Positions 41,525 through 49,862 of a stretch of DNA of 64,000 bases are shown one piece after another. The DNA lies in the NCBI GenBank assembly GCA_028412835.1, contig JAONQW010000001.1:11617-75616 (forward strand), given 5' to 3'. Source of the DNA: Candidatus Pelagibacterales bacterium (lineage in GTDB: Bacteria; Pseudomonadota; Alphaproteobacteria; Pelagibacterales; AG-422-B15). The notes below the pieces were generated by a model that worked only from the letters and a program-made list of their open reading frames with translations, did no database searches and was not told where the DNA came from. Made by a program: the position numbers and the translations under genes. The first letter of the stretch is position 1. Every line of letters begins with the position of its first letter.

Positions 41525-41616
41525 AAAATAACTTTTAAGAAAAGACTAAAATTCTTTTATTGCACAATTATTGTAGTTTGAAATACTATTTATTAATTAA
41601 ATTTAATAGTAATATA

Positions 41617-42321
41617 ATGGAAATATTTCAACTGTTTAGCTATATGCATATCATAACAATATTTGTTGTTGTGGTTTCATCATTTTTAATTCCAATAGCC
41701 TGCAAGTTTTTTTTTAGTTCACGTATAAATATTAATATTTCATATATCATTGGTACTATTTTAATTACTCATGAACTTATAAAACCTTTTTATAGATATC
41801 ATTTTTACAACGATCCTTTTGTTGAAATTATTCCAATTCATATGTGTCACTTGGCATCATTATCTATGGGCTTATTTTTTTTTACAAAAAAGGATATTTT
41901 TTTTGAAATAGGCTACTTTTGGGGAATGACTGGCAATGTTATGGCAATTCTAACTCCAGATTTAGATTTCTTTTTTAATTGGCAGTACTTCACATACTAC
42001 TTCGGTCACAGCATGCTTCTTTTATCAATAATATTCACCTTAGCTTGCCTTACTCATAATATAAATTTTAAATCTGTAATCAGAGTTATATTAATTACAC
42101 TTGCATTTTTACCTCCAATTTATTTGTTAAATTTTATTTTAGGGGAGCAGGCAAATTATTGGTATTTAAATACAATACCTAAAGCGACATCTATACTTTC
42201 ATTTTTACCAAATCCACCATTGAACATTATCTTCTTGGTTCCAATAGGTTTAATCTTAATGATGTGTGTCTACATGCCCTATAGATATTTCGCATCTTAT
42301 AAGAGAAATATTGGAGCCTAG
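41617..42321 (+). CDS. integral membrane protein (possibly TIGR02206/YwaF-like)
   Basis: 234 aa from ATG 41617; the track's TTG at 41560 is less likely. Multi-TM with an IPIHMCHL motif. The family call is tentative. Confidence 0.55.
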   Translation: MEIFQLFSYMHIITIFVVVVSSFLIPIACKFFFSSRININISYIIGTILITHELIKPFYRYHFYNDPFVEIIPIHMCHLASLSMGLFFFTKKDIFFEIGYFWGMTGNVMAILTPDLDFFFNWQYFTYYFGHSMLLLSIIFTLACLTHNINFKSVIRVILITLAFLPPIYLLNFILGEQANYWYLNTIPKATSILSFLPNPPLNIIFLVPIGLILMMCVYMPYRYFASYKRNIGA

Positions 42322-46497: not shown

Positions 46498-47256
46498 ATG
46501 GAACTTATATTTTCACTAGAAACATTCATTTTTTTATTTTTTGTTGCAATTACAGCTGGCATTGTCGACACATTAGCTGGCGTTGGTGGATTAATAGTAT
46601 TACCAGCACTTGTATTAATCGGATTACCTCCTTTAACTGCCTTAGGAACTAACAAAGCCCAATCATTTGCTGGGACTGGAACAGCATCTTACATGATGCT
46701 GGTGTATAAGAAGATATCAGTAAAACAAATGAAACCATTAATGCTTACAGCTTTTGTAGGTTCATTAATTGGTACAGTACTTATTCAATTTATTGACAAT
46801 AAGTCACTTTCTATAGTTATACCCGTAGTATTGATGATTATTATATTATATTTTATTTTTTCACCTCGGATGAATGAGGTGTCAAGCAAAGCAAGAATAT
46901 CTGATAACCTATACAAATATACGCTGGCACCCATAATAGGGCTTTACGATGGAATGTTTGGTCCTGGAACTGGATCTTTCTTTACAGTTAGTGGCGTGGC
47001 ATTAAGAGGTAAAAGTTTAATAGATGCAACTGCAAATGCTAAAGCGCTTAATTTTGCAACTAATGTTGGTTCATTATTTATCTTTTTATATTTAGGTGAG
47101 GTTATATTTCCAATAGCTTTAGTAATGATAGCTGGACAGTTTATTGGTGCTCGTATTGGTTCAAACTTTTTAATTAATATTAATCCAACATTTTTAAAAT
47201 ATTTTGTTATTTTGTTGTGTGTCTTGATGCTTGCTCGATATCTTAATTTAATCTAA
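46498..47256 (+). CDS. TauE/SafE (TSUP) family anion exporter
   Basis: 252 aa, about 8 TM, with GxGGG-type motifs (LAGVGGLIVLP, GPGTGSF). Confidence 0.7.
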   Translation: MELIFSLETFIFLFFVAITAGIVDTLAGVGGLIVLPALVLIGLPPLTALGTNKAQSFAGTGTASYMMLVYKKISVKQMKPLMLTAFVGSLIGTVLIQFIDNKSLSIVIPVVLMIIILYFIFSPRMNEVSSKARISDNLYKYTLAPIIGLYDGMFGPGTGSFFTVSGVALRGKSLIDATANAKALNFATNVGSLFIFLYLGEVIFPIALVMIAGQFIGARIGSNFLININPTFLKYFVILLCVLMLARYLNLI

Positions 47257-47770
47257 ATCCACAAACAAAATTTTCTTGTGCTACAGTTTCAATAGAACCT
47301 GGTCGATTATCTCTTATAACTTCTATTGATTGCTGTGCAGACAAACCTAATTTAGTTAATATTAAAGCTGCTATCATTCCAGTTCTACCAAGACCAGCCA
47401 TACAATGAATATAGATATTCTCCCCATTAAAAATTCTTTGACTGATAGTTTTTATGTGAGAATTTAATTCATCGTATTGATTTAAATTAGGTATACCAAA
47501 ATTGATTATTTCAAAATGAATCCACTTAATATTGTTTTTATTTAATTCTTTAAATAAATTTTTGGCTCCCAGATGGGTAAGCTCATTTTCTTCTACTAAG
47601 CAGATTAAACACTTAATATTTAAATCTTTTATGATTTGAATATCACCCAGTAGATCTTTACCCATCCCAGGACAGCTAGAAAGAAATAAGTCACCAAACA
47701 CTTGAGCATTTGATGACTTGTTATTACGATTTATTAGGTGGTTAGTTCTAATGCAAGAGTAATTAAGCAA
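47243..47770 (-). CDS. dual-specificity protein phosphatase, CDKN3/KAP-like
   Basis: 175 aa with a CX5R P-loop (HCMAGLGRTG) and an upstream LSSCPG. Collinear with human KAP as remembered. Uses a TTG start 7 nt after the upstream gene's stop. Confidence 0.75.
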   Translation of the reverse strand: MLNYSCIRTNHLINRNNKSSNAQVFGDLFLSSCPGMGKDLLGDIQIIKDLNIKCLICLVEENELTHLGAKNLFKELNKNNIKWIHFEIINFGIPNLNQYDELNSHIKTISQRIFNGENIYIHCMAGLGRTGMIAALILTKLGLSAQQSIEVIRDNRPGSIETVAQENFVCGFRLN

Positions 47771-47777
47771 AGCTAAG

Positions 47778-48767
47778 TTATAGTCTCAACCATGCTAGAG
47801 ATATGTTTATATCCTCATATCCACCAGGTATGATTACATAGTGTATTGCAAGAACTATAGCGACTGAGACTGTAAGTCCCATAATCATTTTTAAAAAGTC
47901 CTTACCAATAATTGGAAAAACATAGCCAAGTTTATAATCACTTACAACCGTTGCTATTGCCAGTTCTCTACCACAAAGTAATCCAACAAAAACCCACGTG
48001 GTAGACATAGGAATATCATTGTAATATTTAAAATAGAGTAAAATAAAAGCATAAACTCCGTCAATAATAGTTGCCGAACGAATAAATCGTGTTCCACGTT
48101 TTTCAAGTACTATACTTTGAATACGGCCACCTTTTTCATAAAAAATGTAAAAAAGTAAAAATGTTAATAGACCCATAATGCCAAGCAACATAACAAAAGG
48201 TAAATCCCTAGGAAGAAACACGGCTATATTTGCCATATCATGAGAGAGCCATGTGTACCATAGGAAGCCAGTGGTTAACCATTGAAAGACACGCCATCTT
48301 TCTGGGTTTTTAACTACATCAAATTTCTCATTAATATATCTAGAAAGAACAATCCATAATGTATATGCAATGACAGCAGCCAATGCATAACCAATAACAG
48401 ATTTAATTAGTACTTTTTCTAAAACAACTGTGGAGGCAAATGCAGATAAAACTAGGAATGTAGTAGAAACTGGAATTCCAAATCTTGTAAGTAATAGTAG
48501 AAAACCAGGTGCAGCAGCATGATACCATTTAATTTCTTGGAAAGGTATCTTGTTTAATCTTCCATAAGAAATATCACCGTGAAAATACCAGCCATTAAGT
48601 AAGGTAAGACATAATACTGCTGACGCTGCTCCAGCTAATACATACCATTTAAAATTTTCTGAATTTGAAGCTATGAATGTTCCCAGTGTTTGAACACTAT
48701 CATTTGCGACAACAGAATATGCTGCAAGTGTAAAACCTATGACCATATAAATATAAGTAATTTCCAT
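47778..48767 (-). CDS. divergent PiT/PHO4-superfamily-like membrane protein
   Basis: 329 aa from ATG 48767; the track's TTG at 48932 adds 55 non-membrane residues. Motifs are VANDSVQTLGT, GIPVSTTF, HDMANIAVF and IPMSTTW, compared with canonical GANDVANA and PVSTTH. Confidence 0.6.
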   Translation of the reverse strand: MEITYIYMVIGFTLAAYSVVANDSVQTLGTFIASNSENFKWYVLAGAASAVLCLTLLNGWYFHGDISYGRLNKIPFQEIKWYHAAAPGFLLLLTRFGIPVSTTFLVLSAFASTVVLEKVLIKSVIGYALAAVIAYTLWIVLSRYINEKFDVVKNPERWRVFQWLTTGFLWYTWLSHDMANIAVFLPRDLPFVMLLGIMGLLTFLLFYIFYEKGGRIQSIVLEKRGTRFIRSATIIDGVYAFILLYFKYYNDIPMSTTWVFVGLLCGRELAIATVVSDYKLGYVFPIIGKDFLKMIMGLTVSVAIVLAIHYVIIPGGYEDINISLAWLRL

Positions 48768-49028
48768 TATAATTTGTTTCCCTTCAAAGATGGATTTATT
48801 AGATATAAATAAAGATTTTTTAGTATTTGAAAATGCACAATAGATAATATCACCTTTATAGGTTGGTAAGAAAAGATGTAAGTCGATTTTTTCATTACGA
48901 ATCGTATCTGTTGAACAATTCGATTGATACAATGATTCACATTCTAATCAACAGTAAATATTTATTAATTTAATATATATATGGATAAGATTTATTGTGA
49001 TGTTAATAAGCATCTTTACTAGAAATTC

Positions 49029-49862
49029 TTAAGAATACATTTGAAGCGTGGCAATACCCATAAACAAAATAAATGCAGCTAGAAGTCGCTTTTTCACACC
49101 ATTTTCTTTAAAAAAATACAGACCTATTAATGAGGCAAAAATTATACTGCTTTCTCTTACCGATGCTACGTAATGGGTTGGAGCTTGAGTGTAAGCCCAT
49201 AGAACTAGCGTATACGAGGTTATAGAAATAATAGCTGTAATTGAAAATCTAACCCTATTTTTATTAAGAGTATTTATTAAATTATCTTTATTAAATGTTA
49301 AATTATAGGCAAGTAAAGGTATTGAGCTAAATATAAAAATCCAAACAATATATTGATAAGGGTTGTTTGCATGCTGTATGCCTTCAGCATCTACTATCGT
49401 ATAAAAAGTAATAGCCAGTGGAAAATACAGCATTGACAGTATATTTTTAAAACCAATTTCAGATATTTTTTTTGGCAATAACAATAAAATTGCACTTACA
49501 ATTAACAATATCCCAATAAACTCAAACATATCAACTTCCGCATTAAAAAATATTATCAAGATAAGTACTGTTATGAGTGGAGCCAGGCCTCTAGCAAAAG
49601 GGTAGGCTATAGAAAAATCATAGAGTGAATATGCTCGTGTCATGGCGTGTAGATATAGCGTGTGTGCTATTACACTAATCAATAAATAAATCCATATTTC
49701 TGACGACGGCAAGCCTACTACAAATGTCAACGGCAGAACCAATAAAGCCATAGTCGATGAAATGATAGTTACTGTAACAAGACCATTGTTCTGATCTTTA
49801 ACAAAGGCATTCCAGGAAGCATGCAATATAGCTGCAATAATAAGGATTACTAAAACGCTCAT
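49029..49862 (-). CDS. DMT/EamA-like 10-TM transporter
   Basis: 277 aa, about 10 TM with two similar halves. No other recognisable motif. Confidence 0.55.
   Translation of the reverse strand: MSVLVILIIAAILHASWNAFVKDQNNGLVTVTIISSTMALLVLPLTFVVGLPSSEIWIYLLISVIAHTLYLHAMTRAYSLYDFSIAYPFARGLAPLITVLILIIFFNAEVDMFEFIGILLIVSAILLLLPKKISEIGFKNILSMLYFPLAITFYTIVDAEGIQHANNPYQYIVWIFIFSSIPLLAYNLTFNKDNLINTLNKNRVRFSITAIISITSYTLVLWAYTQAPTHYVASVRESSIIFASLIGLYFFKENGVKKRLLAAFILFMGIATLQMYS

Follow-up and report, generated by a model that had tools for sequence, protein, structure and literature searches.

A divergent PiT-like protein, probably a phosphate importer, beside a KAP-like phosphatase of phosphorus-acquisition loci in SAR11

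Two minus-strand genes stand one behind the other in a 64,000-nucleotide stretch of the Candidatus Pelagibacterales contig JAONQW010000001.1 (positions 11,617 to 75,616 of the forward strand), which we call the window. The upstream gene encodes a 329-amino-acid (aa) membrane protein resembling PiT-type phosphate transporters, and the downstream gene a small cysteine phosphatase resembling the human cyclin-dependent kinase (CDK)-associated phosphatase KAP (CDKN3). The window has a G+C content of ~32%, and both genes find their nearest homologues in Pelagibacterales (SAR11) genomes and in marine metagenomes. Neither open reading frame (ORF) is there by chance: homologues number in the thousands for the transporter and in the dozens for the phosphatase. 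An initial annotation of this DNA suggested that the two might work together, the membrane protein carrying or sensing a phosphorylated substrate and the phosphatase hydrolysing it. On balance, we lean towards a different reading, in which a probable phosphate importer lies beside a phosphatase of phosphorus-acquisition loci and the two do not form a dedicated pair. Motifs, folds, sequence conservation and gene neighbourhoods are what the analysis shows; that the substrate is phosphate, that the genes share a transcript and that the phosphatase has a phosphorus-related role are inferred.

As the initial annotation had it, both ORFs lie on the minus strand as a tight pair, and the gap of 7 nucleotides (nt) between them is seen directly in the sequence (Table 1). 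The transporter stop codon is the TAA at 47778-47780. Because the gap is so short and no non-coding region intervenes, the genes are probably co-transcribed; the sole sizeable non-coding stretch of the unit is the one 5' of the transporter gene. This layout depends on where the genes begin. A 384-aa transporter ORF that starts at a TTG and reaches 48932 was rejected because close homologues are nearly all 329 aa, a length shared by most of the >8000 transporter homologues. Most gene callers place the phosphatase start at an internal GTG, which yields 152 aa. We rejected this form as well, since the upstream codons are conserved and a modelled strand favours 175 aa. In five distinct loci, with protein identity as low as 47%, the 23 codons 5' of the GTG contain no stop, and both the open frame and its TTG start are conserved. 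The encoded peptide, LL(N/D)(Y/F)S(C/R)I, is kept in all five, even across an in-frame deletion, and the AlphaFold2 (AF2) model confidently places a beta-strand at residues 4-7. The open codons, the kept peptide and the strand support both the 175-aa phosphatase and the 7-nt gap. The phosphatase has no signal peptide or hydrophobic segment; it would be a cytoplasmic protein, co-transcribed here with the transporter.

Table 1. Features of the transporter-phosphatase locus, in window coordinates.
Feature	Position	Strand	Description
PiT-like membrane protein	47778..48767	minus	329 aa, ATG start; candidate phosphate importer
KAP/CDKN3-like cysteine phosphatase	47243..47770	minus	175 aa, TTG start, no signal peptide
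7-nt spacer, transporter stop to phosphatase TTG	47771..47777	minus	read from sequence
Hairpin (14 bp) and U-rich run	47688..47719	minus	codons 18-28 of phosphatase ORF
Intergenic region, 261 nt	48768..49028	minus	5' of transporter gene; presumed promoter region
TauE/SafE-family gene	46498..47256	plus	Pfam TauE; convergent with phosphatase gene; conserved right flank
EamA-family transporter gene	49029..49862	minus	Pfam EamA; left flank in the window's lineage

Structure prediction points to a PiT fold in the membrane protein. An AF2 model built from 40 family members (predicted local distance difference test score, pLDDT, 78; predicted TM score, pTM, 0.77) had a sole significant Foldseek match in the PDB, the Thermotoga Na+/phosphate transporter TmPiT (6L85_A; E 3.9e-4, probability 1.00, query-based TM score, TMq, 0.63, 17% identity); the runner-up stood at E 0.096. 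Profile alignment with hhalign to a canonical PiT (E 1.2e-4, 183 columns) brought the ND, PVSTT and D-x-x-N motifs into register, and the same motif register emerged against the C-terminal half of TmPiT. This sole match and the collinear alignment bear out the fold with both repeats that had been proposed from motifs. All the quoted motifs are present at their places: VANDSVQTLGT at residues 20-30, GIPVSTTF at 97-104, HDMANIAVF at 176-184 and IPMSTTW at 252-258.

The model contains ten main helices arranged as two five-helix inverted repeats with re-entrant hairpins (HP), equivalent to transmembrane (TM) segments TM1-TM2-HP1a/b-TM3 followed by TM6-TM7-HP2a/b-TM8. Both aspartates are present in the repeat motifs, which read A-N22-D23-S and P99-V-S-T-T in repeat 1 and H176-D177-M and P253-M-S-T-T in repeat 2. 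The TM4/TM5 scaffold is missing, so that the TM3 and TM6 equivalents are only 8 residues apart. A 350-aa canonical PiT at locus L026 likewise lacks the TM4/5 segment in alignment to 6L85; the segment is therefore not universal in PiT, and short PiTs are not unusual. Two inverted repeats with helices and a re-entrant hairpin are shared with TmPiT, with human PiT1/2 of SLC20 and with bacterial PitA (TC 2.A.20). Like TmPiT, the window protein has ND on TM1, D on TM6 and P-x-S-T-T on both hairpin tips, residues that in TmPiT make up all the phosphate ligands and the Na1 ligands. Unlike TmPiT, to which it is ~17% identical, it has 329 rather than 402 aa and no TM4/5 dimerisation helices. It departs from canonical PiT in carrying VANDSVQT for GANDVANA and Phe or Trp for the His after PVSTT, and its family has an extra invariant GRE after hairpin 2. 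By its model, then, the 329-aa protein is a short, scaffold-less and divergent member of the PiT/SLC20 superfamily. One relative, P0070 (412 aa), has an internal duplication of ~85 residues across the hairpin-2 region (GGKIQ...PMSTTWVF...), either real or an assembly artefact.

The phosphate-binding residues of this fold are conserved. TmPiT ligates phosphate through D22, D258, S105/T106/T107 and S345/T346/T347; its Na1 ligands include N21 and D22, its Na2 ligands include N257 and D258, and a third sodium ion is held by T29, Q243, S247 and D327 (PMC7413737). All eight phosphate ligands are kept in the window protein, where N21/D22 become N22/D23, S105/T106/T107 become S101/T102/T103, D258 becomes D177 and S345/T346/T347 become S255/T256/T257. 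T29, Q243 and S247 of the third sodium site correspond to T30, Q162 and T166. The one clear ligand change is at Na2, where N257 is replaced by H176; Bacteroidota relatives carry Gln there. Across 40 family sequences (41-95% identity), N22, D23, T30, S101, T102, T166, D177 and S255-T257 are invariant, and so is N180. T103 is Thr or Ser in these sequences; Q162 is kept throughout the SAR11-lineage subset, and in the wider set Gln is the consensus at this position.

These comparisons divide an earlier claim, that the signatures are altered and the coupling residues changed with them. The alterations are real and fall on flanking positions, namely the second Asn of GANDVANA, the His after PVSTT and the Gly/Asn before the second Asp; among the ligands, the one clear change is that of the Na2 Asn. 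The description of the fold as degenerate was thus overstated, because all eight phosphate ligands are kept. By analogy with TmPiT, phosphate would be bound between the hairpin tips S101/T102/T103 and S255/T256/T257 and the TM aspartates D23 and D177, and the second cation site would be modified by His176 in place of Asn. The protein would then most likely be a single-component importer that takes in inorganic phosphate on an ion gradient. We think it rather likely that phosphate is its physiological substrate.

Relatives of the transporter are numerous, and phosphate-related contexts recur among them. The homologues form >8000 close clusters; a pattern search placed the family in 220 GTDB species genomes, and clustering at 50% gave 945 representatives, 222 of them with E < 1e-30. 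Members occur in Micavibrio-like and other Alphaproteobacteria, in Bacteroidota (Flavobacteriales, Lewinellaceae, Cytophagales) and in Cyanobacteria. Almost all are annotated as hypothetical, neither Pfam nor NCBIfam has a model dedicated to the family, and the IMG and COG label is 'phosphate/sulfate permease'. No conserved neighbour is common to all 80 transporter loci; neighbourhoods are clade-specific. A 653-aa fusion of the PiT-like protein with a PstS-type PBP_like_2 domain appears on three contigs from independent samples (L090:4001-6898, L091), with a gene for polyphosphate kinase 2 (PPK2; TIGR03707, 373 bits) 28 nt after the fusion. On one contig, a 740-aa product is merged or fused with a Porin_O_P (phosphate-selective porin) domain, and a Lewinellaceae genome has PHO4 and Porin_O_P genes adjoining the PiT-like gene.

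Another such neighbourhood belongs to 27 marine alphaproteobacterial species genomes (within loci L016-L047), in which PhoU_div (DUF47) and a canonical PiT lie 1-4.5 kb from the PiT-like gene, with a SET-domain gene in between. In 16-17 of these loci the intervening stretch also holds an LpxH-like metallophosphoesterase and then a GT4 glycosyltransferase (PlcP-like/Agt-like). This metallophosphoesterase-glycosyltransferase arrangement is that of plcP-agt lipid remodelling in SAR11 (PMC4796936), and we infer that the genes of L016-L047 are plcP-agt. Locus L016 also holds, at L016:9365-10448, a MIP channel gene and a gene resembling low-molecular-weight protein tyrosine phosphatase (LMW-PTP) and ArsC between the PiT-like and PhoU_div-PiT genes. 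The latter scores 92 bits to arsC_pI258_fam, below the cut-off, and suggests arsenic handling inside this phosphorus island. The canonical PiT beside PhoU_div (L026:10378-11430, others in L016-L047) has its own peculiarities: GANNIANV and PVSSSQ in the second repeat, an Asn at the equivalent of TmPiT D258 and a Ser-rich hairpin tip. Within the 64-kb window itself there are no homologues of pst, phoR, PhoU_div, phn, PlcP-like or PPK2 genes, which does not imply their absence from the genome.

The transporter half of the locus has already been published as a candidate. Tucker et al. (2025) describe pitA (COG0306) in offshore SAR11 without pstSCAB-phoU (PMC12636525). The SAR11 Genome Atlas preprint (bioRxiv 10.64898/2026.08.15.744057) reports an orthologous group, OG0001433, that has no COG, KO or Pfam assignment, matches 6L85 by Foldseek (probability 1.00, 16.8% identity) and shows strong anti-occurrence with seven Pst/Pho components (the set pstSCAB-phoU-phoBR); its authors propose a TmPiT-like phosphate transporter, with validation pending. 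The window protein similarly lacks a standard Pfam, KO or COG call, is assigned to COG0306 by DIAMOND and matches 6L85 at ~17%, and is likewise a proposed single-component phosphate transporter that would replace Pst/Pho. Because these measured properties coincide with the published ones, we take it to be the same gene. The transporter is thus a divergent PiT already flagged in the SAR11 literature as an alternative to Pst, and it would provide an uptake route in SAR11 lineages without Pst/Pho. Neither source contains the word 'phosphatase', and neither says whether the ligand residues are conserved, how far the family extends beyond SAR11 or that PiT-like and pst genes are placed at the same site.

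Several observations weigh against identifying the protein as a PiT-type phosphate importer. The significant PHO4 match that the initial annotation looked to did not materialise: the Pfam PHO4 model (PF01384) gives the 329-aa protein E 3.5e-4 and 20.1 bits, short of the gathering cut-off of 33.7. The relative P0171 scores 29.4 bits, and some homologues have precomputed PF01384 matches; no NCBIfam model matches the protein. HMMER searches of PDB sequences, run with a 9-sequence and a 40-sequence family profile, did not reach 6L85; fold and profile-profile comparisons alone made that connection. The D327 equivalent is ambiguous, with hhalign placing I229 there and D236 lying 7 residues off. The family-specific invariant charges R70, R187 and R267-E268 have no canonical PiT counterpart and could alter substrate or coupling. 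Some family members sit in uninformative contexts, as in Cellulophaga, and the equation with pitA/OG0001433 comes from matching properties, not from sequence comparison.

Divergence of this kind might instead mean that the PiT-like protein carries another oxyanion (sulfate, arsenate, phosphite or molybdate) or works as an exporter or exchanger. The Bacillus subtilis protein CysP carries sulfate, and the His or Gln at the Na2-ligand position, the family-specific Arg and Glu residues and the 'phosphate/sulfate permease' label would all fit such a role. The canonical-looking PiT of L016-L047 finds its best NCBIfam match in the CysP sulfate-permease model, at 85 bits against a 400-bit cut-off and thus far below it. 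Against a different oxyanion stand the eight retained phosphate ligands, the PstS-type fusion and the PPK2, Porin_O_P and PHO4 neighbours, together with the reported anti-occurrence with Pst/Pho in SAR11 (10.64898/2026.08.15.744057). We judge this alternative unlikely and continue to regard the protein as a probable phosphate importer.

The phosphatase is KAP-like at the level of fold. Its AF2 model (pLDDT 92.4) has human KAP as its best Foldseek match (1fq1_A/1fpz; E 8e-10, TMq 0.82, root-mean-square deviation 2.4 Å, 180 columns, 24% identity), and DUSP23, Tk-PTP and the PRLs reach TMq ~0.65. Pfam CDKN3 (PF05706) is also passed, with 26.6 bits against a cut-off of 20.7. As KAP is the best full-length structural match, the KAP-like assignment of the initial annotation holds in this sense; its 'eukaryote-type' label does not, for the prokaryotic PTP-SAK and archaeal protein tyrosine phosphatase (PTP) sequence matches are stronger than KAP. 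PTP-SAK (5.5e-12, 46.4 bits) and DSPc (3.4e-11, 43.5 bits) outscore CDKN3, and Tc-R-P also matched. The nearest PDB sequences are archaeal-type PTPs (ShufPTP, Tk-PTP, SsoPTP) and DUSP23, and KAP is found at 1.4e-7 with the longest coverage. Shared with KAP/CDKN3 are an N-terminal strand with a (C/S)xPG motif, here LSSCPG at residues 30-35, and a collinear HCX5R loop and following helix. The window phosphatase is bacterial, with no CDK substrate, and dephosphorylation of a CDK activation-loop phosphothreonine is implausible because no CDK is expected in a bacterium.

The catalytic loop is intact, in line with the earlier description of a CX5R P-loop. The motif HCMAGLGRTG at residues 122-131 supplies a complete HCX5R(S/T) loop (H122-C123-MAGLG-R129-T130) with catalytic C123 and R129, and C123, G126, L127, G128 and R129 are invariant in an alignment of 19 homologues. 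The unusual residue lies elsewhere. At the general-acid Asp position of Tk-PTP-type PTPs (PxxD, the WPD-loop equivalent), the window phosphatase has Asn90 (EIINFGIP), and alignment to a KAP sequence also sets Asn90 against Asp. The Asn is kept in all SAR11-lineage homologues (47-94% identity), and Asp is kept in the clade adjacent to PiT and in the majority of distant homologues. Some cysteine phosphatases, such as RNA triphosphatases and Cdc25, do without a general acid, acting on good leaving groups or using other acids. Since such enzymes exist, Asn90 is a lead on substrate or kinetics and not a sign of inactivity; a literature search for natural bacterial dual-specificity phosphatases (DSPs) without a general acid gave nothing relevant. 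IMG names distant homologues of the phosphatase 'ADP-ribosyl-[dinitrogen reductase] hydrolase', and on a Halioglobus contig (L081:5001-6465) one such homologue is convergent with an ADP-ribosylglycohydrolase gene, which hints at another functional context for that distant branch.

Loss of the general acid raises the question of arsenate, as Cdc25/Acr2-type HCX5R reductases need none. An arsenate reductase or other arsenate detoxifier would suit a protein that adjoins several kinds of phosphate-uptake genes, that has lost the Asp in the SAR11 lineage and that keeps a second Cys in its SSCPG motif; 2.6 kb from the phosphatase there is a gene for an ArsP_2-family permease, and the related L016 island contains the LMW-PTP/ArsC-like and MIP channel genes. 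Yet we know of no arsenate reductase with the DSP fold, the clade beside canonical PiT keeps its Asp, and the best matches are all phosphoprotein phosphatases. We therefore consider this identity very unlikely.

Tight spacing invites the idea of an obligate two-gene system, in which the membrane protein would carry or sense a phosphorylated organic compound and the phosphatase would be the hydrolase dedicated to it. The same strand and 7-nt gap recur in the window, L001, L002, L084, L086, L087 and L093, and the signature motifs of the membrane protein depart from canonical PiT. Contigs with 60-63%-identical phosphatases show full synteny across EamA, PiT-like, phosphatase, TauE, BipA and ArsP_2 genes. 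Beyond this one syntenic SAR11 sublineage, the adjacency disappears. The phosphatase lies directly 3' of the transporter in 2 of 80 species-level transporter loci (L001, L002), leaving 78 without an adjacent phosphatase. In 26 of the 80, all within L016-L047, a ~30%-identical phosphatase sits 3-5 kb off on the opposite strand, and 52 have none within 6 kb; at L044 the PhoU_div-PiT pair is present and the contig ends short of the phosphatase position. Conversely, only 1 of 80 phosphatase-anchored metagenome loci has a PiT-like gene (L093). The families also differ in size, with ~24 close clusters for the phosphatase against >8000 for the transporter, and phosphatases of the same type adjoin pst, PiT or phn genes instead. 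The kept TmPiT phosphate ligands, moreover, indicate a pocket built for orthophosphate. The pair is thus not co-conserved as the initial annotation supposed, its carrier-and-hydrolase proposal is unsupported, and we hold an obligate system of this kind to be the least likely of the alternatives, hardly to be expected at all.

What recurs instead is a looser link between the phosphatase and phosphorus-uptake loci in general. At L094, a 49%-identical Asn-type phosphatase has a divergent phoR 141 nt upstream, followed by pstS and pstC; the scores are 306 bits for phoR (TIGR02966), 141 bits for pstS (PBP_like_2) and 292 bits for pstC (TIGR02138), the last above its cut-off, and the TauE gene known from the window lies downstream, again convergent. 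At one chromosomal site, next to the same phosphatase, there is thus either the PiT-like gene or a Pst/PhoR cluster, which provides a physical basis for the reported anti-occurrence. L095 has the same phosphatase type as L094, followed by BipA and ArsP_2. In 26 loci of L016-L047, an Asp-type phosphatase is convergent with and abuts PhoU_div-PiT (PHO4 196 bits), whatever the other flank. In at least 7 of these loci, the phosphatase is also 25 nt 3' of genes for a permease, PhnU2 (768 bits), and an ATPase, PhnT2 (497 bits), on the same strand; the two belong to a putative ABC transporter for 2-aminoethylphosphonate. Finally, at L096 (41% identity, G+C 0.30) the genes next downstream of the phosphatase, also on its strand, are phnCDE, encoding an ABC ATPase, a Phosphonate-bd protein and a permease. 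These observed placements support the looser link.

The same pattern has a less functional explanation: the phosphatase may simply belong, with TauE and BipA, to the conserved flank of a hypervariable site at which phosphorus-uptake cassettes are exchanged, without any phosphorus role, and the 7-nt gap may reflect the compaction of SAR11 genomes. The entire neighbourhood is syntenic in the pair-bearing lineage. The phosphatases of L094 and L173 are 96% identical and share ~85 nt upstream of the start codon (L094:3860-4000 against L173:1-171); beyond that point the sequences diverge fully, into phoR in L094 and different sequence in L173, a break that resembles the edge of an exchangeable cassette. 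In the HIMB59 order, flexible phosphate islands that keep a fixed place in the genome have been documented (PMC10734472). Other points also count against a phosphorus role. The phoR-pstSC arrangement is found on one contig, L094. L097 has GDH and SDR neighbours and no phosphorus context, and none was found for the distant homologues P0149 and P0145 from higher-G+C genomes, which adjoin an ADP-ribosylglycohydrolase gene and nitrile hydratase and toxin-antitoxin genes, respectively. Every phosphorus-linked context is from a low-GC marine lineage, and these lineages are related, so part of the pattern could stem from inheritance of a common phosphorus island. On the other side, the second clade has a different flank (PhnU2 and others, not TauE-BipA) and its phosphatase still abuts PhoU_div-PiT in 26 loci, the phosphatase precedes phnCDE in L096, and five phosphorus-uptake partners in three orientations are hard to derive from a single inherited junction. 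Mere positional neighbourhood is therefore possible though doubtful, roughly a one-in-four matter to our minds, and we put a genuine phosphorus-related role of the phosphatase at close to an even chance. In that role, the phosphatase would be a resident of the phosphorus-acquisition locus in streamlined marine Alphaproteobacteria.

RNA structure at the gene boundary adds a further qualification. A hairpin of 14-17 bp with a U-rich run falls within the first 30 phosphatase codons and covers the alternative GTG start. Its folding free energy is -15.8 kcal/mol in the window (z -5.4), -21.7 in L001 (L001:6900-6937; z -7.7) and -19.1 in L086 (L086:3022-3059), with z from -5.4 to -7.7 over the three loci, and 0 of 200 shuffles fold as well. 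The 5' arm varies between loci, with pairing kept through G-U/G-C/A-U changes; in L084 and L002 the hairpin is absent. Placed behind the transporter gene, it may serve as a partial terminator or an attenuator, and hairpin and U-tract together could end part of transcription within the 5' end of the phosphatase ORF. Upstream of the transporter, three sigma-70-like matches lie on the minus strand at 49054-48941. They are weak evidence because they are not enriched over shuffles: the promoter scan found 7 sites where 12.5 were expected.

Comparison with the HIMB59 islands places the locus among known arrangements. Like them, it is a fixed site with alternative phosphorus-acquisition cassettes, and the islands share with L016-L047 a SET methyltransferase, GlpF/MIP, an LpxH-like protein, an RfaG-like glycosyltransferase and a tyrosine phosphatase. 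They differ in that all hold pstSCAB-phoU and that their tyrosine phosphatase is Wzb (LMW-PTP) and not KAP-like; no PiT-like gene is described there (PMC10734472). What is new here is modest: the KAP-like phosphatase recurs beside five kinds of phosphorus-uptake genes, PiT-like and pst genes swap at the same site, and Asp has changed to Asn throughout a lineage.

The phosphatase might be more than a resident. PhoU_div (DUF47) accessory proteins pair with PiT genes, and PRL phosphatases bind CNNM transporters; in each case, a secondary transporter has a small cytoplasmic protein that acts on it or is encoded next to it. The likeness is an analogy only and makes no claim of membership. Following it, the KAP-like protein could be an unrecognised, conserved component of phosphorus islands that acts on the adjacent uptake system, be it PiT-like, PiT, Pst or Phn, as a regulator with a slow-turnover phosphocysteine state, a phosphoanhydride hydrolase or an arsenate enzyme. 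In the regulator version, Asn in place of Asp would slow turnover, and a long-lived phosphocysteine or bound phosphate would report cytoplasmic phosphate, in a manner analogous to PhoU or PRL-CNNM. We offer this as a speculative and rather improbable extension.

The flanks of the pair are themselves conserved. The phosphatase and convergent TauE genes overlap by 14 nt at their 3' ends (47243-47256), as they also do in L001, L084 and L086. TauE, BipA and ArsP_2 follow the phosphatase in L084, L086 and L095, as TauE does in L094, and EamA holds the same left-flank position in L001, L084 and L086. Five kilobases from the pair, at 41560-42321 on the plus strand, the window has a TMEM164-family gene (Pfam PF14808, 112-130 bits), also seen at L003:4821-5540. 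The family is best known from eukaryotes, and in the sister clade L003-L012 the gene lies directly 5' of the PiT-like gene.

SAR11 is the most abundant heterotroph of the surface ocean, where phosphate is often limiting. If Pst-less SAR11 truly import phosphate through the PiT-like protein alone, the terms on which these populations compete for phosphorus would be set by its affinity, its ion coupling and the arsenate it lets through. The kept phosphate ligands and the same-site swap of PiT-like and pst genes turn a published candidate into a directly testable hypothesis. The transporter family also takes in many proteins of Bacteroidota and Cyanobacteria that are annotated only as hypothetical. 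The phosphatase, for its part, is a small and tractable enzyme, and its pairing with the transporter is specific to one lineage.

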